A stretch of DNA of 32,000 nt from Wolbachia endosymbiont of Drosophila innubila (GCF_021378375.1 NZ_CP076228.1:150001-182000), one strand, 5' to 3'; numbered from the stretch's first letter, positions 4,105 to 32,000 are shown. Made by a program: numbers and translations. The notes: generated from the letters alone by a model not told the origin.

Positions 4105-4357
4105 TGCCATTCCAGCGCATGACGCACAGCTGTACGAACATTGCAATTTGCAGGCAATTTGCGTGGCAGATTCAAGTAGCTGACACTGGTTTCCATCCAA
4201 GACAGCAGTAGCCCTTTCGGTGTTATTTCAGTGCTTGACACTGAAATCCAGGATTTTGATTGGATACTGAGTTGGTAAGCATAAAAGTGTAGCTAACGCG
4301 AGCTCTACGTCATACCGCGATTTATTCGCGGTATCTCAAAGCATAGATCCCGCTGCG
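4105..4357. repeat. mosaic of short palindromic repeats (family B hairpin units, family C arm, family A element)
   Basis: Contains gccattccagcgcatgacgc, gctgtacgaacattgcaatttgcagg, cagtgcttgacactgaaatccagg and cgtcataccgcgatttattcgcggtatctc...atcccgctgcgggatgacg. All of these recur in other intergenic blocks of this window. Confidence 0.75.
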
Positions 4358-4854
4358 GGATGACGATTGTCGTTTAGCCATAAATATTTAAGAAATTTAC
4401 CAAATGAAAAAAAAGGCAAAAGAAGTCCTGGGGTTATTATCCGCTTTAAAATATTGGCGTTTTTTATGTTTTAAACGCTTGACAAGCAAGATTAAGCTGC
4501 TTTTAATTGCAACTAACTTACGCTGCAAATGTTTAAGAAATTTACTAAGCAGAAAAAAAGACAAAGAATCCCCGAGTTAGCTAGTCTTTTACTATCTCTG
4601 TCGAGTATTGGCATTTTTTGATGTCTTGTAACGCTTTATAAGCGCGTTCAGCTTATTTAGATAAAAATCTAGATGTAGATGAAGTTTTGTAAAGACATAT
4701 AGTATCTATATACTGCAAAAAATTGAACATAAGACGCCGATACATTAAGTAATCCTTACCTTTTAATCTGCAGATTGGCGAAAGCAAATACAATAGCTTC
4801 AGTTTCATGATAAGGGGGCTGGCGGAGTTTGTCAAGGAAGTTTTTTCGTTTCTA
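4358..4854. repeat. ~495-bp modular repeat, copy 1 (two degenerate ~145-bp tandem modules plus a ~200-bp head)
   Basis: By-eye alignment with 24228-24722 shows a central stretch of ~365 bp that is identical, with divergence at both ends. The modules start with taagaaatttac at 4389 and 4534. Confidence 0.85.
4807..4835 (-). promoter_or_regulatory. sigma70-like promoter inside repeat copy 1 (TTGACA-17 nt-TATCAT on the minus strand)
   Basis: The minus strand reads ttgaca aactccgccagccccct tatcat. The same hexamers and 17-nt spacing are kept in copy 2, although 4 of the 17 spacer bases differ. Confidence 0.3.
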
Positions 4855-8573: not shown

Positions 8574-9821
8574 CTATACTTGGTTTACTTTGGGTAATTT
8601 TGAAGAAAGCTCACCCTTAATTTGCGATATAGCAACTAGCCCAATTAATGCACAGAAAATCATGTAAAAACTAGCTGAAGTCTCTTGTCCTGTAACCTTG
8701 ATAATTGTTGTGCATATAAATGGTGCAAGGCCGCCAAAAAATCCAGCAGCTATATTTCTTGATAAACCAAATCCACTGTACCGAACCTTTGTTGGAAATA
8801 ATTCGCACATAAGTGCACTGACAGGACCAAGCGATGCAGCTATTGGAATTATAAAAAGAATGTGTGCCAGCAAGTAATTGCCACTACATAACATTGAAAA
8901 AACTGGATAACTCACTATTACAAAAGCTATGAATGCAAATTTCATAACTTTTTCTCTTCCTACCTTATCAGAAAGTATTGCAAACAATATTGTCAATCCT
9001 CCGAGCGCAATTTGACTCAGTATTTCCACTATATGATTAAAATGAGTATTTACTGTTAATATTTTATTCGTAAGCACATTGAAAAATACCAAATATATAT
9101 AGAGAGACGCATTTTCAACCAAGTCAATACCTATTGATATTAGAACAGGCTTTTTGTAATTGTTTAATAACTCTTTTAGTGGCAATTTAGACGGATTTTT
9201 TTGTCTTTTATACTCTGGGCTTTCATCAAGTATATATCTCACATATATGCTAATTAATCCCATTGCTAAACTGAAAATGAAAGGTAATCTCCACCCCCAA
9301 GATTCAAAATCAGATACTTTTTTGCATATGAGTACCGCTATCAGGCTTAATACTGAACCAAAAATTGCGCTTAATACTTCAATGCTGCCAAAAAATCCTT
9401 TTTTGTTTTTAGGAGCATGTTCTATTAAAAATGGTGCATTTCCTGCTTCTCCTCCAAGGGATATACCCTGCAATAGCCTTAAACAAACTACCAGAATTGA
9501 TGCTAGTATTCCAATGCTTTGATAACCTGGAACAAAAGCAATTAATACGGTTGATAAAGTCATTAATATAATCGAGAGCAATAAGGCAACTCTTCTGCCA
9601 TGTTTATCACCAATGTGACCAAATATAGCAGCACCGACTGGTCTCATTAAGAAACCCACTGCAAACACTCCAAAAGCCTTCAATACGCTGGTTAGTTGAT
9701 CATCCGATGGAAAAAACACACCACCTATTATGTTTATTAAGTGGCCAAAAAGCATGTGGTCATACCACAATAAAGTGTTACAAATCAAACTTGAAAATAT
9801 TACTTTTGTTATTTGCTGCAT
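8574..9821 (-). CDS. MFS transporter, metabolite:H+ symporter (ProP-like) family
   Basis: 415-aa ORF with about 12 hydrophobic segments. It has the MFS loop motif GHIGDKHGRR. The substrate cannot be read from the sequence. Confidence 0.85.
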   Translation of the reverse strand: MQQITKVIFSSLICNTLLWYDHMLFGHLINIIGGVFFPSDDQLTSVLKAFGVFAVGFLMRPVGAAIFGHIGDKHGRRVALLLSIILMTLSTVLIAFVPGYQSIGILASILVVCLRLLQGISLGGEAGNAPFLIEHAPKNKKGFFGSIEVLSAIFGSVLSLIAVLICKKVSDFESWGWRLPFIFSLAMGLISIYVRYILDESPEYKRQKNPSKLPLKELLNNYKKPVLISIGIDLVENASLYIYLVFFNVLTNKILTVNTHFNHIVEILSQIALGGLTILFAILSDKVGREKVMKFAFIAFVIVSYPVFSMLCSGNYLLAHILFIIPIAASLGPVSALMCELFPTKVRYSGFGLSRNIAAGFFGGLAPFICTTIIKVTGQETSASFYMIFCALIGLVAISQIKGELSSKLPKVNQV

Positions 9822-10039: not shown

Positions 10040-10984
10040 ATGACACACACTCCAGTTTTGTTAAAAGAGATGCTATCACTACTATCACCGCAGGATGGTG
10101 GCATATACGTGGACGCCACATTTGGAGCTGGAGGGTATAGCAAAGCAATATTGGAGTCAGCTGATTGCAAGGTATATGCAATTGATAGAGATGAAACGGT
10201 AACTAAGTTTTATGATGATTTAAGCGTTAGATATCCCGATAGAATAAAACTATTCATTGAGAAGTTTAGTAATATTAAAAGTATACTAAGCAGCGTTGAG
10301 CCATCTCCTGTCATCCCAGTACTTGATACTGGAAAAAATAACTGGTCACGCGCTGGAATGACATCAAACGGAGTGGATGGAGTGGTCTTTGACATCGGAG
10401 TTTCATCTATGCAGCTTGATAACGGAGATAGAGGGTTCTCATTTTTACATGATGGTCCACTCGATATGAGCATGGATAACTCTTCTTATATAAACGCTTC
10501 AACGTTTGTTAACGCTTTACGCGAAGAAGAAATCGCAAATACTATATATAACTACGGAGGCGAACGTCATTCTCGCAAAATTGCAAGAGCAATAATAAAT
10601 GCACGGAAGAAGAAAACTATCAAAACTACATTTGAGCTTGCGGATATTGTACGTTCCGTGGTATTTCGTGGAAAAAGCAAAATTGATCCTGCAACCAGAA
10701 CATTTCAGGCAATCAGAATATGGGTAAACGATGAGCTAGAAGAACTTGAAAAGGGTATTAAAGCTGCATCTGAGATTTTAAGTGAGAATGGCAAATTAAT
10801 TGTCGTCACCTTTCATTCCTTAGAAGATCGTATAGTCAAAACTTTTTTTAAAGATTTATGTGCTACTGATTGCAAGACATTCTCTCTGCTAAATAAAAAA
10901 GTGATCGAAGCAAGTATAGAAGAAGTAAGTGCAAATCCGCGTTCACGCTCAGCAAAACTAAGAGCTATACAGAGGTTGTCGTGA
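10040..10984 (+). CDS. rsmH: 16S rRNA (cytosine1402-N4)-methyltransferase RsmH/MraW, carrying an in-frame repeat-derived insert
   Basis: HTPVLL, DATFGAGGYS, FDIGVSSMQLD, RGFSF, GPLDMSM, FHSLEDRIVK and NPRSRSAKLR are all present. Residues 91-108 are encoded by a family B hairpin element. Confidence 0.93.
   Translation: MTHTPVLLKEMLSLLSPQDGGIYVDATFGAGGYSKAILESADCKVYAIDRDETVTKFYDDLSVRYPDRIKLFIEKFSNIKSILSSVEPSPVIPVLDTGKNNWSRAGMTSNGVDGVVFDIGVSSMQLDNGDRGFSFLHDGPLDMSMDNSSYINASTFVNALREEEIANTIYNYGGERHSRKIARAIINARKKKTIKTTFELADIVRSVVFRGKSKIDPATRTFQAIRIWVNDELEELEKGIKAASEILSENGKLIVVTFHSLEDRIVKTFFKDLCATDCKTFSLLNKKVIEASIEEVSANPRSRSAKLRAIQRLS
10310..10363. repeat. family B palindromic mini-element inside the rsmH reading frame (54 nt, 18 codons)
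   Basis: The sequence is gtcatCCAGTActtgaTACTGG...ctggtcacgcgctggaatgaca. The left unit matches the intergenic unit gtcatcccagtgcttgacactgg. The right unit is the inverted form of gtcattccagcgcgtgac (seen at 27456). Confidence 0.7.
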
Positions 10985-11396: not shown

Positions 11397-11588
11397 ACAA
11401 CAAATGGTGTCATCCCAGTGCTTGACACTGGGATCCAGCCTTTCCATAATCATCAAAAACATTGTATTTTAACGTAAAACAGCTATTTTTATGCTTACCA
11501 ACTTAATAAAATTCCTGGATCCCAGTGTCTGGGCACTGGGATGACAAAGGAGAGCAGTGTCAGCTACTTGCATAACACCATTTGTTGT
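11397..11588. repeat. MITE-like family B composite: two inverted hairpin units flanking a ~75-bp core, inside a longer 13-bp inverted repeat
   Basis: acaacaaatggtg is followed by gtcatcccagtgcttgacactgggatccag, then the core, then ctggatcccagtgtctgggcactgggatgac, and finally caccatttgttgt. The inner ~130 bp recurs at about 15987-16115. Confidence 0.8.
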
Positions 11589-13200: not shown

Positions 13201-14163
13201 TTACGAAACACAGGAAGTGTATGGTCCCAGAGTGTGATGGTGTGGATTTAGTATGAACAATTCAGGAGATTTTGTCCACTGTAAAGATATAAACTCAAAA
13301 GGTGTAAGACCCTTAAGAGTTTTGAGTCTTTTAGCATAATTGTAGGCCATAACAAAGTCATAAAGATGCTCTTTGAGTTGCTGGTGAGACTGATAGTAAT
13401 ACTTCTTAACAGTGGCATTCTTTAAAGTTTTGTTCATACGCTCAACTTGCCCATTTGTCCAAGGATGGCTAACTTTTGTTAGACGATGTTCAATGTCATT
13501 TTCTTCACAAGCTCTATCAAATATATGTTGAAAAGCGTATTTATGGCGTTTTTGGTTGGTAAATTGTACACTGTTATCTGTCAAAATAGTGTGGATTTTA
13601 TATGGTAAAATTTTAATCAAATTACGTAGAAACTCAGCAGCTATAGGTTTTGTAGCACTTTTATGCAACTCAACATACGTAAATTTGGATGTTCTATCTA
13701 TTGCAACAAACAAATATAACTTTCCTTCTTCTGTTCTGACTTCTGCAATATCAATATGGAAATAGCCTATAGGATATTGTTTGAATTTCTTTTTTGGTTT
13801 AACTTCGCCATCAACATCTGGTAGTCTGCTAATGCTGTGCCTCTGTAAGCAACGATGTAGACTAGAGCGAGTCAAGTGTGGGATTGAGGTTTGCAAAGCG
13901 TAGAGACAATCATCTAATGGCAATAGAGTATGCTTACGAAATGCAACAATTACAGCCTCCTCTTCTAAAGTTAAAACAGTTGATCTTGCATGCTTCGGAC
14001 CCATATCAGCGTCTTTGGCAAAAGACCGTTTTCTCCATTTAATGATAGTTTTTGGATTAAGGTTATAGTACCTGGAGAGTTTTGCTATGCTCTCTTTACT
14101 ATTTTGTATTGCTCTACGAATTGTCTCTGTTGTTTTGGCGCACCCATGTAATATTTGTCCCAT
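13201..14163 (-). CDS. IS481-family DDE transposase
   Basis: It has an N-terminal HTH region, an integrase-like core (HIDI..V...GK.YLFVAIDR.S, ILTDN, HPWTNGQVERMN) and an uninterrupted frame. The ORF reads through the left IR, and its stop (13201-13203) is supplied by flanking DNA. Confidence 0.9.
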   Translation of the reverse strand: MGQILHGCAKTTETIRRAIQNSKESIAKLSRYYNLNPKTIIKWRKRSFAKDADMGPKHARSTVLTLEEEAVIVAFRKHTLLPLDDCLYALQTSIPHLTRSSLHRCLQRHSISRLPDVDGEVKPKKKFKQYPIGYFHIDIAEVRTEEGKLYLFVAIDRTSKFTYVELHKSATKPIAAEFLRNLIKILPYKIHTILTDNSVQFTNQKRHKYAFQHIFDRACEENDIEHRLTKVSHPWTNGQVERMNKTLKNATVKKYYYQSHQQLKEHLYDFVMAYNYAKRLKTLKGLTPFEFISLQWTKSPELFILNPHHHTLGPYTSCVS

Positions 14164-14228
14164 AATTCCTCCTTTGATGGTATTGTTTTCTCATATTTTA
14201 TCATACCATCACACTCTGGGACCATACA
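13218..14228 (-). mobile_element. IS481-family insertion sequence, apparently intact (~1.0 kb)
   Basis: It has 23-bp perfect terminal inverted repeats: tgtatggtcccagagtgtgatgg at 13218-13240 and its complement at 14206-14228. They enclose a single 320-aa DDE transposase ORF. No flanking direct repeat is visible. Confidence 0.85.
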
Positions 14229-14470: not shown

Positions 14471-14519
14471 ACATCAATTTTTCTATTGACTTTTAACACA
14501 ACTGCTGAACAGATACATT

Positions 14520-14567
14520 CGTCATCCCGCTACGTGTTAGCGGCCAAGATACCGCGGCGGTATGCCG
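14520..14567. repeat. family A palindromic element (inverted orientation)
   Basis: cgtcatcccgctacgtgttagcggccaagataccgcggcggtatgccg contains the two hairpins of family A in reverse order. Confidence 0.7.
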
Positions 14568-14604
14568 TGGGAAACCTGACTTGCATTAGCTATAAAATAG
14601 TGAT

Positions 14605-15856: not shown

Positions 15857-16187
15857 CGTCATACCGCGATTCATTCCATAGCTGTACGAACATTGCAATG
15901 TGGCACATAGTAAACGATGTCATGAAAGTAGCTGACACTGGAATTCAGAAAAAAGGATGATGTTATTCCAGTGCCTCTATGATGTCATCCCAGTGCTTGA
16001 CACTGGGATCCAGCTTTTTCATAATCATCAAAATATTGTATTTTAACATAAAACAGCTACTTTTATGCTTACCAACTTAATAAAATTCCTGGATCCCAGT
16101 GTCTGGGCACTGCCCACTGGTGGCCCAAACTACAACGTTCGTACAGTTGTGCGCGGTATAGATTCCGCTAACTAGTAGCGGAATGAC
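15857..16187. repeat. nested repeat block: a family A element split in its first hairpin loop by a family C inverted-repeat element that itself contains family B units
   Basis: cgtcataccgcgattcatt ends at 15875 and cgcggtatagattccgctaactagtagcggaatgacg resumes at 16151. The 275-bp insert is bounded by ctgtacgaacattgcaatgtgg and its imperfect inverted copy. Confidence 0.8.
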
Positions 16188-21501: not shown

Positions 21502-21615
21502 TCTATTTTACTTAATTACTAAAAAAATGATAGCTGTTTATTTTTTCTTGTATCATTAAAGCTTCTGTAGCTACTCATGCTGTTGTAGTTTGAGAGCAGT
21601 TCCCATCGGAAGGGT

Positions 21616-21822
21616 GTCATTCCAGTGCTTGACACTGGAATCCAGTTTTTGATCAAAAATGTTGCTATAGTGCACAATCAATTTTCCTGGATCCAAGTAG
21701 TCTGGGCTACTTGGATGACACCATAGGGGGCTACTTGGATGACAGGGGAGGCTGCTGGGATCCTGACAACCGTCATCCCGCTGCTTGTTAGCGGGATCTA
21801 GAGATACCGCGGCGGTATGACG
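21616..21822. repeat. family B hairpin units followed by a family A element (inverted)
   Basis: Contains gtcattccagtgcttgacactggaatccag, ctggatccaagtagtctgggctacttggatgac and ccgtcatcccgctgcttgttagcgggatctagagataccgcggcggtatgacg. Confidence 0.8.
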
Positions 21823-21827
21823 TAGAG

Positions 21828-22490: not shown

Positions 22491-22694
22491 CTCAGTGTCA
22501 AGCACATAACTATACGAACATTGCAATTTGTAGGTGGTGTTATTCCAGTCTGGAATCTAGCTTTTATGTTGCATAGTGCACAATCAATTTTCCTGGATCC
22601 AAGTAGTCAGGGCTACTTGGATAACACCCTACTTAACCGTCATACCGCCGCGGTATCTCTTAGCCACTAACACGTAGCGGGATGACGATTGTCG
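22491..22694. repeat. mosaic of family B, C and A repeats
   Basis: Contains ctcagtgtcaagcac, ctatacgaacattgcaatttgtagg, ctggatccaagtagtcagggctacttggataac and ccgtcataccgccgcggtatctc...cgtagcgggatgacgattgtcg. Confidence 0.8.
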
Positions 22695-23994: not shown

Positions 23995-24227
23995 TTCCAT
24001 CCCAATCCCAGTGCTTCCTTCTCCTGTCATCCCAGTGCCCTGACTACTTGGATCTAGCAAGCTTTGCTTGCAAATAAGTCTAATACGCGTCGCGTTTTAT
24101 GCCAAAACACAATTGGAGTTACATGCAAAATAGATCCCAGACTGGGATGACAAAAAAAGGAGCACTGGGATGACAGCAGTCCTGCGTCATACCGCCGCGG
24201 TATCTCTAGATCCCGCTAACAAGTAGC
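23995..24227. repeat. family B units and a family A element preceding repeat copy 2
   Basis: Contains cccaatcccagtgc, gtcatcccagtgccctgactacttggatc, gatcccagactgggatgac and gcgtcataccgccgcggtatctctagatcccgctaacaagtagcggg. Confidence 0.75.
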
Positions 24228-24722
24228 GGGATGACGATTGTCGTTTAGCTATAAATATTAAGAAATTTACCAAACAAAAAAAAGGCAAAAGAAGCCCTGG
24301 GGTTATTATCCGCTTTAAAATATTGGCGTTTTTTATGTTTTAAACGCTTGACAAGCAAGATTAAGCTGCTTTTAATTGCAACTAACTTACGCTGCAAATG
24401 TTTAAGAAATTTACTAAGCAGAAAAAAAGACAAAGAATCCCCGAGTTAGCTAGTCTTTTACTATCTCTGTCGAGTATTGGCATTTTTTGATGTCTTGTAA
24501 CGCTTTATAAGCGCGTTCAGCTTATTTAGATAAAAATCTAGATGTAGATGAAGTTTTGTAAAGACATATAGTATCTATATACTGCAAAAAATTGAACATA
24601 AGACGCCGATACATTAAGTAATCCTTACCTTTTAATCTGCAGATTGGCGAAAGCAAATACAATAGCTTCACTATCATGATAAGGGAGCTGGCGAAGGGTG
24701 TCAAGTAAGTTTTTCGTTTCTA
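24228..24722. repeat. ~495-bp modular repeat, copy 2
   Basis: It is collinear with 4358-4854. The central ~365 bp is identical by eye, and the orientation is the same. Confidence 0.85.
24676..24704 (-). promoter_or_regulatory. sigma70-like promoter inside repeat copy 2 (TTGACA-17 nt-TATCAT on the minus strand)
   Basis: The minus strand reads ttgaca cccttcgccagctccct tatcat. The hexamers and spacing are conserved relative to copy 1. Confidence 0.3.
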
Positions 24723-24770: not shown

Positions 24771-27235
24771 TCAAGCCTTCAGCTCCTCAAACACTTCATT
24801 TGCTCTATTTAAAACAGAATCAGGAAAACCAGCAAGTTTTGCTACATGTATTCCATATGACTCATCTGCAATGCCTTCAATTACTTCATGTAGAAAAATA
24901 ACCTCTCCGTTCCACTCTCTTATTTTTACACAAAAACATTTCACGTTCTTCAAGTATTTGCTTACTTTAGTTAATTCATGATAATGAGTTGCAAAAATGG
25001 CGCGGCACTTATTTACATTGTGAATATGTTCAATCACCGCCTGTGCAATAGATAATCCATCATACACCCCTGTGCCCCTACCAATTTCATCAAGTATCAC
25101 CAAGGAACGGTCCGTTGCCTGATTTACTATCGTTGCTGTTTCGATCATCTCTACCATGAAGGTAGAATAACCAGCTGTTATATTATCCGTTGCGCCAACC
25201 CTGCTGAATATCTTGTCAATCACTCCAATATGTGCACTCTCTGCTGGCACAAATGACCCCATGTGAGCTAAAATTGCAATGAGAGCGTTTTGCCTCAAGA
25301 AAGTGCTTTTTCCAGCCATATTAGGACCAGTAATTAGATGTATACCAGCTAAATTGATGCTATTTGCAATGAATTTATCGTTAACTTCAACCACTGGATG
25401 TCTTCCGCTACAGATATTGAACTCTTTGCTGTCATCAATAATGGGTTTTACGTAATTATTTTGCACTGCAAGCTCTGCAAATGCGGTTCTAACATCAAGT
25501 TTTGCCAAAGCATTTGCAGCAAGAGCAATTTTTCAGATTCTTTAGCGACTTCACTACACAGTTCACTAAAAATTTTCATTTCTAAGCCGATTGCAGCATC
25601 ACGTGCCGTAAGAATTTTATTTTCTAGTTCTTTCAATTCATTAGTAGTGTAGCGCATGCTATTTGCTAAGCTTTGCCTATGAATAAATATATCCGAAGTT
25701 ATTTTGTGATTTGCCGACACTTCAACGTAATAACCAAGTATGTTGTTGTGTAATATTTTGAGTGCGGCAATGCCAGTAAGATCGCGATAAGATTCACGGA
25801 GCTTAGTTACCAACTTGTTACTGTTGTTCAATATATAAGATAACTCAGATAATTCTGAGTTGTATTTTGAGTGAATAAATCCTCCTTCTTTCACGGAACT
25901 GAGGTTATTATCGAGTATAGCACTATTTAACAGTTCAAATAGGTCTTTATGATTGCCAAGGCTTTTATGTATTGTGCTTAGTTCACTCTCGTCTGATTTT
26001 ACTGTTATTCCAGCGCGTGACGCTAGCTGGATCTCAGTTTGGATGACATATTGTTGTGGGAGAGATCCATTTTCACCTGATTCAATTTTACATAAGAACT
26101 CAGACAATTCTAAAGTCTTTCCTAGGCCTATTTTCAATAGGTTCATATCCTTTGGTGAACTACGCCCTAGTATTAAGCGCGATAAAGACCTTTCAATATC
26201 CGGAATGTTAGATAATATCTCTCGTATTTTTCTGCGTGAATCATGATTATTTACAAAAAATTGAGCGGTGCTGAGCCTCAAATTGATTGCCTTGGAGCAA
26301 GCAAGGGGTGAAGCGAGCATTTGTTTGAGCAGGCGTCCACCAGAAGCTGTAACTGTATGATCAATAACTGAAATTAGTGAACCTTTCTTTTCACCAAATT
26401 GAGTTGAAAACAACTCAAGATTTCTCCTTGCTGAAGCATCAATAAGCATGAAATTTTGTTGCTTATAGGTTTTTGGGAATTCAAGCCTTGGAATAGAGCC
26501 CCTTTGTGTTACTCTGACATATTCAAGCAGTGCACCACACGCCATGATTTCTACTTTGCTGAAATTTCCTATACTCCCAAGTTCCCTGATTTTATAAAAC
26601 TCGCATAATGTTCTGTGAGATTTACTATACTCAAAAAAGCTCTGTGCGTGTTGCGTAATTGATATTTTATAATTTTTTAAAATCGATCTAATTTTTTCAT
26701 CCTCAGTGAATTTTTCAGAAATTAATAATTCTCTTGGTGATATACGCAATAAATCACTATCTAGAGCTTTCAAACTCGTTAAAGTGTGAAAAAATTTTCC
26801 CGTCGATAATTCAAGCCAACTAATAGCATATTCGTCATTTTGTTCAACTATGGATGCGAGATAATTATTGCTTTTATCCTCCAGTAGTGAATCTTCTATA
26901 ATTGTACCTGGAGTTACAACTCGCACTACATCACGTTTTACTATGGATTTATAGCCCCTCTTTTTTGCTTCATCAGCAGTTTCTAATTGATCACAGATTG
27001 CTACTTTGAATCCTAAATCTATTAGCTTGTGCAGGTAAGATTCACTACTGTGTGCTGGCACTTCACACATTGGTATTTCTTGCCCACACGAATTACCTCT
27101 CTTAGTGAGCACTATATTCAGCAATTTCGCAGCTTTAATAGCATCATCGAAAAACAATTCATAAAAATCTCCTAGCCTATAAAATAGCAGATGATCTTTG
27201 TATTGAGCTTTCAGGTTCAAATACTGCTCCATCAC
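24771..27235 (-). pseudogene. mutS: DNA mismatch repair protein MutS, split into 595-aa and 245-aa ORFs by a -1 frameshift
   Basis: The N-terminal ORF has MMEQY..K......[17 protein letters not shown]. The C-terminal ORF has GRHPVVE, the Walker A motif [15 protein letters not shown], and DEIGRGT and THYHEL. Adding one base to the 5-nt run at 25529-25533 gives ...[17 protein letters not shown].... Confidence 0.9.
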
Positions 27236-27378: not shown

Positions 27379-27485
27379 TTGGATCCAAGTAGTCAGGACA
27401 CTTGGATGACATAAAGAGTAGGAGTATTTGATGACAAAAAAACAAAAACACAGTTGTCATTCCAGCGCGTGACGCTGGAATCCAG
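27379..27485. repeat. two family B hairpin units
   Basis: Contains cttggatccaagtagtcaggacacttggatgac and gtcattccagcgcgtgacgctggaatccag. Confidence 0.8.
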
Positions 27486-27538
27486 AATATCCTAATTACA
27501 AGGTTTATTATTTAGTTTGAAAAATACTATAGCTTTTT

Positions 27539-29110: not shown

Positions 29111-29817
29111 ATGCTAACTGATGCTTGGACTTTACTGACACTTACACTACTTGAAACTATACTTAGTGTAGACAATTTAATCTTTATTTCTCTAGCAATA
29201 GATAAGGTACCAAATGCGCTGAGAGAAAGAGTGCGCCTTATGGGCCTTGGATTAGCACTATTAATGCGTTTTGTAATACTATTTTTACATCATCTATATT
29301 ATCAATGCAAAAACCTATATTTCACACTGCATCAGCAAGGGATTTACTTATGATCGCAGGGGGATTATTCCTTATTGTTAAGAGCTCTATGGAGTTACGG
29401 GATGACATCTTTGTATGTAAGAAAAATAAAAAGAAAGCAAACGTTAAATCAAAATTTTTTTTAGTTGTGCTACAAATTATATTAATAGATTTAGTTTTTT
29501 CGGTTGATTCGATATTAACTGCTATAGCGCTAACTTATAACATGGTAATAATTGCTACAGAATTTACATTTTCCATGCTAGCAATGCTGTTTTTATCAAG
29601 TTATACCGCCCAGTTAATCAAATCTAACCCAGGGTTAAAAATAATCGCCATTTTATTTGTTTTACTTGTCGGTGTGTACCTCATACTTCATGGATTTCAT
29701 ATAGAATTACCAAAAGGATATTTGTATTCTTCATTTATGTTTGCACTGCTTGTGGAAATTATAAGCAAAATAAAGAAAATTAACCGTCATACCGCGATTC
29801 ATTCGCGGTATCTCTAG
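29111..29817 (+). pseudogene. TerC-family integral membrane protein, split into 80-aa and 170-aa ORFs by a -1 frameshift
   Basis: It has the TerC N-terminal signature (LLETILSVDNLIFISLA) and RDLLMIAGGLFLIVKS in the second ORF. Adding one base to the T5 run at 29282-29286 joins ...RFVILFF to TSSILSMQKPIF.... The last ~10 codons and the stop lie in a family A repeat. Confidence 0.8.
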
Positions 29818-29841
29818 ATCCAGCTAACAAGCAGCGGGATC
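29784..29841. repeat. family A palindromic element overlapping the terC 3' end
   Basis: The sequence is ccgtcataccgcgattcattcgcggtatctctagatccagctaacaagcagcgggatc. Confidence 0.8.
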
Positions 29842-31535: not shown

Positions 31536-31826
31536 CACCATACCGCTGCGGCGCTAACTAGTAGCGGAATGACAGCAATCTACGTCATACCGCCGCAGTA
31601 TCTCAGCCGCTAACAAGTAGCGGGATTATCTTCATGCTGCCACGAACCGTCATACCACCGCGAACCGTCATACCGCGATTCATTCGCGGTATCTCAGCCG
31701 CTAACAAGAGATCCCGCTAACAAGCAGCGGGATGACGAGGTATAAACTTTATCGTCATGCCACCGCGAACCGTCATACCGCGATTCATTCGCGGTATCTC
31801 GGCCGCTAACAAGTAGCGGGATGACG
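31536..31826. repeat. cluster of about four tandem, imperfect family A palindromic elements
   Basis: There are repeated cgtcataccgc(g/c)... gcggtatctc(a/g)gccgctaacaagtagcgggat(gacg) units starting near 31536, 31582, 31655 and 31755. Some carry an internal duplication (ccaccgcgaaccgtcatacc). Confidence 0.8.
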
Positions 31827-32000
31827 ATTGTCGTTTAGCCATAAATATTTAAGAAATTTACCAAATGAAAAAAAAGGCAAAAGAAGCCCCGTAATTGGCT
31901 AATTACTTACATTATACTTTCAAGTATGGCGTTTTTTTATTCTAAACGCTTAATAACCGCGACTCAGCTGCTTTTAAATGCAACTAACCTTAGCTATAAA
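31818..32000. repeat. ~495-bp modular repeat, copy 3 (first module only, more divergent; continues beyond the window)
   Basis: gggatgacgattgtcgtttagccataaatatttaagaaatttaccaaatgaaaaaaaaggcaaaagaag matches the left end of copy 1. A module follows with conserved flanks (gtatggcgttttttt, aaacgctt, cagctgcttttaaatgcaactaac) and a different centre. Confidence 0.7.

Follow-up and report, generated by a model that had tools for sequence, protein, structure and literature searches.

A palindromic repeat remnant read in frame within a predicted loop of the Wolbachia rRNA methyltransferase RsmH

The rsmH gene analyzed here lies in a 32,000-nt stretch of Wolbachia DNA (the window, to whose first letter all positions refer), and its linker region carries an insert with the following parts.

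10040 to 10984, plus strand: rsmH, the gene of the 16S rRNA m4C1402 methyltransferase, an intact ORF of 314 aa that hosts the insert
10295 to 10309, plus strand: upstream insert-derived codons VEPSP, whose bases are missing from the empty alleles L081, L082 and L088
10310 to 10332, plus strand: left repeat unit GTCATCCCAGTACTTGATACTGG, whose bases 10316–10332 form the perfect hairpin CCAGTA/CTTGA/TACTGG
10333 to 10341, plus strand: A-rich linker AAAAAATAA, whose counterpart in the undeleted L083 dimer is AAGAAAAATAA
10342 to 10363, plus strand: right unit CTGGTCACGCGCTGGAATGACA, inverted and shortened, with 9 nt (GATTCCAGC) missing relative to L083

The best RsmH matches listed (n = 120) are 77–95% identical to the window protein, and those named among them are all Wolbachia except two labelled Rickettsiales bacterium. 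PF01795 is recorded on all of its close RsmH homologues, and the residues that are invariant in the Wolbachia RsmH alignment are all kept in the window protein, the conserved DIGVSS segment included. The sequence-only reading had called the gene essential, which is overstated since rsmH can be deleted in E. coli. Upstream of rsmH, the MFS transporter gene (8574–9821) is intact at 415 aa; its counterpart in L082 (1536–2782) is split into ORFs of 307 aa and 110 aa, and that in L081 is truncated and adjoins IS genes.

We found that positions 10310–10363 (GTCATCCCAGTACTTGATACTGGAAAAAATAACTGGTCACGCGCTGGAATGACA) translate in the rsmH frame to VIPVLDTGKNNWSRAGMT, codons 91–108; hence, coordinates, ORF and translation all agree with the earlier claim that these codons are a repeat element read in frame. 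The insert is composed of a single hairpin unit followed by an A-rich linker and then a shortened inverted unit, and its core is bounded by GTCAT...ATGAC. The left unit is identical to the rsmH copy of L083 (23/23), and its identity to two intergenic units, those at 11409 and 15984, is 91%. Relative to the intergenic consensus (10316–10332 compared with 11415–11431), its stem has changed from CCAGTG/CACTGG to CCAGTA/TACTGG, a form common to L083 and L084, and the stem is still perfect because the two changes (G>A and C>T) complement each other.

The insert is also longer than first described. The in-frame insertion stands, and the size of 54 nt, or 18 codons, does not: the net gain over an empty allele is 63 nt, or 21 codons. 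The EPS motif is common to most filled alleles, and positions 10301–10320 are 95% identical to an intergenic copy at 24017–24036. Since VEPSP is a remnant of an outer degenerate unit that is present at full length in longer alleles (EPSVISK.SPVI), the element-derived sequence begins at about 10295.

Outside rsmH, the following copies of the family were located in the window.

11406 to 11548, plus strand: full-length intergenic element of 143 nt, with inverted unit ends GTCATCCCAGTG...CACTGGGATGAC
15983 to 16112, plus strand: second intergenic element, 95–96% identical to 11406–11538
21615 to 21646, plus strand: intergenic unit GTCATTCCAGTGCTTGACACTGGAATCCAG, which matches the repeat
26004 to 26047, minus strand: second in-frame copy, inside mutS, in the ORF at 25448–27235
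27455 to 27486, plus strand: intergenic unit of the GCGCG-loop subtype, TGTCATTCCAGCGCGTGACGCTGGAATCCAG, which matches the right half of the L083 dimer at 31/31 positions

In all, the 32 kb hold at least seven copies of the family, two of them within genes (rsmH and mutS). The intergenic unit has the form GTCAT-CCCAGTG-CTTGA-CACTGGG-ATCCAG, in which CCCAGTG-CTTGA-CACTGGG is the stem-loop; inverted pairs of units flank a spacer, and this inverted two-unit form is found both in the rsmH gene of L083 and in the window. The element at 11406–11548 folds into one long hairpin (−58.9 kcal/mol, z = −8.5).

We found four matches to the 23-nt left unit in the window at three or fewer mismatches, including the intergenic copies at 11409, 15984 and 21616, compared with 0.00 expected from shuffled sequences. 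The right end of the insert (GTCACGCGCTGGAATGAC) agrees at 18/18 positions with an inverted unit that lies between genes at 27456 (E = 9e-6), and the undeleted L083 form of the insert matches window positions 27455–27485 at 31/31 nt (E = 4e-13). Hence, the insert belongs to the same repeat family as the intergenic blocks, as had been proposed, and the GCGCG-loop unit at 27455–27486 represents the type from which the right arm of this insert derives. An Rfam scan gave no match at the insert locus.

All six window copies of the subfamily to which the rsmH insert belongs begin with TGTC (TGTCAT), not CGTC; the CGTC-tagged copies (CGTCAT) form a sister family, CGTCATCCCGC.../CGTCATACCGC.... CGTC-tagged sister families (CGTCATCCCGCTnnnTGTTAGCGGGAT, CGTCATACCGCCGCGGTATCTCT) stand in dense clusters at 4300–4360, 14515–14570, 21765–21825 and 22638–22692, with more clusters at 24182–24242, 29782–29840 and 31538–31830, and the pair at 21765–21825 and 24182–24242 is 95% complementary over 61 nt. 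A 300-nt direct repeat (4381–4680 and 24250–24549, 96% identity, with a third partial copy at 31816–32000) lies, in every copy, directly downstream of a CGTC-repeat cluster. The 3' end of a TerC-family ORF (29305–29817) enters a CGTC-type repeat (from 29786), so that its last codons and its stop are encoded by the repeat (29782–29817). Elsewhere in the window, Rfam reports a group II intron match (RF00029, 18370–18445, minus strand, 43.9 bits, above the gathering score) amid short ORFs that lack Pfam matches. An IS element at 13201–14228 comprises a rve-type integrase ORF (320 aa, 13201–14163) and 27-nt inverted repeats at 13218–13244 and 14202–14228 that are 96% complementary; L081 and L082 carry the same IS at the same place.

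The mutS copy has an 18/18 match at 26007–26024, and the alignment to E. coli MutS breaks there (query 377–415 against chain 377–385), with about 30 extra residues at the copy. The mutS gene itself (24771–27235, minus strand) is split into ORFs at 25448–27235 and 24771–25508, in different frames and with a 61-nt overlap; the alignment of the first to E. coli MutS extends to about residue 533, and the second holds MutS domain V. This split gene could be a frameshifted pseudogene or could reflect a sequencing error.

Beyond the window, a DNA-pattern scan of metagenome contigs found 102 copies of the exact 30-nt unit on 80 loci, and 19 of these lie within frames that run without a stop for 50 codons or more to either side. 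Their Pfam hosts are PriA, LeuRS (two contigs), PurL (two copies) and the 2-oxoacid dehydrogenase E2, and further a cytochrome c assembly protein, a XerC/D-type recombinase, YhdP and an oxidoreductase. The priA ORF holds the exact unit at about codon 236.

We compared RsmH proteins inside and outside Wolbachia at the insert site. Among solved structures, phmmer leaves a 19-residue gap in human METTL15 opposite query residues 85–103, and the RsmH proteins of T. maritima, Thermus and E. coli each match in two separate stretches that flank the insert region. In an alignment of 20 non-Wolbachia RsmH representatives (43–59% identity, one of them labelled Anaplasmataceae), 18 have a short linker like that of the empty Wolbachia alleles. 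The other two, the unrelated proteins P0180 and P0223, have extra residues of their own at the same helix-strand loop, with sequences unlike the insert (alignment columns 110–150), and these unrelated extras suggest a generally permissive site. The insert was not found in any of the 20 aligned non-Wolbachia proteins or in the PDB homologues. Hence, the segment is specific to Wolbachia and missing from the outgroups examined.

These comparisons bear on the notion that RsmH had the segment ancestrally and other lineages lost it, or that it resembles the repeats by chance. The extra residues of P0180 and P0223 at this loop could be taken in its favor, but they are unrelated in sequence to the insert, while the other 18 outgroups are short, the PDB homologues lack the segment, and the genomic repeat matches within the window have E values of about 1e-5 to 4e-13 where shuffling predicts none. 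We consider this origin extremely unlikely.

In a census of the Wolbachia RsmH linker, 108 of the 120 clusters listed could be classified. A 10-aa linker (NLLDSNNI[EK]G) is found in about 70 of the 108 (~65%), and one cluster has 7 aa. The filled class comprises about 35 distinct alleles with linkers of 23–52 aa (13–42 extra residues), which share one site and one orientation; the linker of the window allele is 31 residues. Supergroups A, B, D and E, as well as other lineages, have filled alleles, and in supergroups A and B these occur side by side with empty ones. Since the length of the empty linker equals that of the outgroups, the empty state is ancestral.

We aligned orthologous rsmH DNA from ten loci and found a series of forms of one element. 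The clean two-unit palindrome is found in wNlug (L083, supergroup B), at 72 nt, as GTCATCCCAGTACTTGATACTGGGATCCAG-AAGAAAAATAA-CTGGATTCCAGCGTCACGCGCTGGAATGACA. The window allele equals this dimer minus two 9-nt deletions, GATCCAGAA and GATTCCAGC. The wNo insert has different deletions, and in wFol (supergroup E) one hairpin of 29 nt is left. The copy in filarial strains, wBp among them, is longer, with 38 extra residues and about 83% identity (a hand count on the alignment), and includes an additional degenerate outer unit (EPSAVSK...). The shared site, orientation, unit subtypes and linker across supergroups point to one old insertion of about 110–125 nt, followed by many deletions. Predicted RNA folding gives −34.7 kcal/mol (z = −8.2) for the dimer versus −14.0 kcal/mol (z = −2.7) for the window copy. 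Hence, deletions in multiples of three wear down the hairpin.

The core units of the supergroup A allele (window) and the supergroup B allele (L083) are identical at 23/23 and 19/19 nt; the genes of these two strains differ by about 10% (an estimate from per-bin counts). This identity, like the compensatory stem pair, could be a sign that the hairpin is under constraint, that other copies have converted it or that it was transferred recently.

The way in which such an element can be read through follows from its symmetry. The dimer is stop-free in one frame per strand, and both frames read VIP...GM(T); the palindromic form of the repeat, with GTCAT...ATGAC as its ends, leaves one frame stop-free in either orientation. 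Insertion in that phase into a permissive loop therefore leaves the protein whole. Other frames of the single unit are also open (SSQCLTLGS, WIPVSSTGM and LDSSVKHWND). Of the traits that define a MITE-type transposon, namely terminal inverted repeats, a target-site duplication and a cognate transposase, the rsmH element has inverted ends. We looked for a target-site duplication at the insert in the aligned alleles and found none that is consistent, an AGTAAT direct repeat flanking the wBp copy only. The window holds no IS200/RAYT-type gene, its only IS being of the rve type.

We then compared this strain with two others around the insert. Between the window and L082 (supergroup A, empty site), there are 23 substitutions in 1745 aligned positions (the gene with 400-nt flanks), 17 of which adjoin the insert. 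L081 and L082 are closely related strains with an empty site, and L084 (an independent assembly, SRR6014648) has the identical insert allele in an otherwise divergent background. A three-way comparison defined the following interval.

10237 to 10384, plus strand: minimal recombinant patch with the filled allele, with breakpoints within 10136–10237 and 10384–10396

Inside this interval, 17/18 informative sites match L084, and outside it 175/179 match L082 (Fisher p = 7.5e-20, for interval boundaries that were set after seeing the data); the patch spans 148–260 nt. Since the patch sites match L084 and the remainder match L082, the insert sits on a recombinant patch, and its presence or absence among close strains thus reflects exchange of alleles and not recent transposition. 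This lineage probably gained the patch, as suggested by two empty-site relatives on the same backbone.

Transposition of the element into rsmH recently, in this strain, would also leave the site empty in the close strains L081 and L082. However, the flanks change together with the insert, homologous inserts occupy the same site in the same orientation across supergroups, and the window copy is heavily deleted relative to intact genomic copies. A recent event is therefore very improbable: the insert is an old, much-deleted remnant, and the strain got it by homologous recombination.

The same comparison addresses whether the insert is an assembly artefact or rsmH a pseudogene here. Repeats can misassemble, and mutS in this window is split into two ORFs, but the identical insert allele occurs in the independent assembly L084, the rsmH ORF is intact with its invariant residues kept, and the structural model of the protein is confident. 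Either possibility is hardly credible.

We modelled the window RsmH with AlphaFold from a 147-sequence alignment and obtained a mean pLDDT of 92.5 and a pTM of 0.89. The sole low-confidence stretch is residues 87–111 (below 50 at 90–95 and 99–109), which lies between the helix at 76–86 and the strand at 112–118 that leads to the D-x-GVSS motif. Foldseek gave target-normalised TM-scores of 0.92–0.96 against RsmH of T. thermophilus, T. maritima and E. coli, and of about 0.83–0.90 against METTL15 on the mitoribosome. Hence, the insert is predicted to be a disordered loop in RsmH, in line with the earlier expectation that it would map to a loop of the structure. In class I methyltransferases, the loop before such a strand is at the end of the sheet opposite the SAM and substrate site; from this known topology, the insert loop would lie at the end of the sheet away from that site.

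A disordered loop that varies this widely in length is most likely neutral, a judgement that we hold less firmly than the overall account below. The insert could instead have been exapted, such that the loop or the mRNA hairpin is functional, through contact with the ribosome or a partner or through translation or stability of the rsmH-ftsL transcript, with the polymorphism under selection. The persistence of filled alleles in supergroups A, B, D and E and others, the identity of the A and B core units, the compensatory pair that keeps the left stem perfect and the preservation of the frame in every case all agree with such a role. However, relatives about 99.6% identical outside the patch are entirely without the insert, the ~35 alleles have arbitrary deletions that progressively ruin the hairpin, and the insert region is the only low-confidence part of the model. 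Moreover, selection on RsmH itself demands preservation of the frame, and template switching in quasi-palindromes, a known mutational process, also gives perfect stems. We therefore regard exaptation as unlikely. Slightly less probable still is that the filled/empty polymorphism is non-neutral because the loop, or the hairpin in the rsmH-ftsL mRNA, tunes the activity or expression of RsmH and hence methylation of the decoding center; if this were true, selection would keep both allele classes across supergroups and short-patch recombination would shuffle them.

The repeat resembles several published systems. In-frame palindromic repeats are known in Rickettsia (RPEs) and, since 2005, in Wolbachia (PMC4224334, PMC3733652), where the Wolbachia palindromic elements (WPE) were named by Ogata, Suhre and Claverie (Trends Microbiol 2005, 13:253), as cited in PMC4224334, PMC3733652 and PMC3767692. 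As described in those citations, WPE are, like the insert family, Wolbachia palindromic repeats that occur between genes and in frame within genes without inactivating their hosts. The rsmH insert has the traits of WPE in that it is multi-copy between and within genes, forms a hairpin, is missing from orthologues and leaves the fold of its host intact. Badawi et al. reported WPE-like in-frame inserts in addA, addB and priA (PMC4224334), and the priA copy of the 30-nt unit falls in the priA region that they flagged as WPE-like. Matsutani et al. described an ATGAC motif common to WPEs and to RPE-4, -6 and -7 (PMC3767692); WPE are rich in ATGAC, and ATGAC forms both ends of the rsmH element.

The architecture found here, of a tag, a short stem, a 5-nt loop, the second stem arm and a short tail, is that of the CGTC-4 repetitive extragenic palindromes of Di Nocera et al. 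(BMC Genomics 2013), which form inverted dimers and large clusters, apparently without a dedicated transposase (PMC3733652). Their supplement gives VIPVLDTGI as a CGTC-4 repeat in the gene of a ComEC/Rec2 family protein, WRi_011360; this peptide is the translation of the unit here (frame +0: VIPVLDTGIQ), and the rsmH insert begins with VIPVLDTG. The tag of CGTC-4 is CGTC, whereas the rsmH-insert subfamily in the window starts with TGTC. In their tag, the sister families of the window are closer to the repeats of Di Nocera et al. than the rsmH subfamily is. The same authors state that the CGTC-4 repeats of wRi and wMel are unrelated to the WPE of wBm (PMC3733652), so two named families may be involved. 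The rsmH gene is not on their list of CGTC-4 genes (PMC3733652), and the rsmH instance was not found in PMC4224334, PMC3733652 or PMC3767692. The rsmH insert may be an unlisted member of a published family.

RPEs (Ogata et al. 2000–2002) show the same behavior, as palindromic repeats in frame in housekeeping genes at surface-exposed permissive sites, and RPE-4, -6 and -7 share the ATGAC/CGTC ends (PMC3733652, PMC3767692). However, RPEs belong to Rickettsia and measure 100–150 bp, whereas the rsmH copy is a remnant of 54–63 nt in Wolbachia, an analogue and not a member. The parallel with RPEs drawn at the outset is apt as an analogy of palindromic insertion that preserves the frame. Its further claim, that the case extends this behavior to the present family, had been anticipated by the WPE of 2005, as they are cited, and by VIPVLDTGI in PMC3733652, and 19/102 copies of the unit lie in open frames. 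The palindromic cid genes (PMC12461563) are kilobase-scale palindromes, unlike this short element. Hence, the repeat family and its in-frame behavior are both already published.

Taken together, the segment is very probably the remnant of an old palindromic repeat that forms an in-frame disordered loop, is carried as a tolerated passenger and was acquired by this strain through recombination. The repeat would be a non-autonomous Wolbachia palindromic element, WPE-like and of the CGTC-4 type, that entered rsmH long ago in the linker between helix 76–86 and strand 112–118 of the Rossmann-type methyltransferase domain. An original insert of about 110–125 nt would then have decayed by multiple-of-three deletions, each taking hairpin arms, and the window allele would have arisen from the 72-nt two-unit form by its two 9-nt deletions, with a weak hairpin left. 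The SAM-binding and catalytic motif would lie on the other side of the sheet from the disordered loop that the 21 extra residues would form. Filled and empty alleles would be exchanged by short-patch homologous recombination, which would have brought the insert into this strain. We infer the original transposition event and its enzyme, and likewise the direction of the recombination.

The case carries little weight as a discovery, in-frame palindromic repeats having been known in Wolbachia and Rickettsia since 2000–2005; its value is as a worked example. In a conserved enzyme, a single permissive loop preserves an allelic series of some 35 steps that documents how frame-keeping deletions wear away a coding hairpin. 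As the mosaic patch shows, close strains can differ in such an insert through allele exchange rather than transposition, which calls for caution in the use of these inserts as markers of recent mobility. The case also points to one origin of length variation and local misalignment in core-gene phylogenies of Wolbachia.
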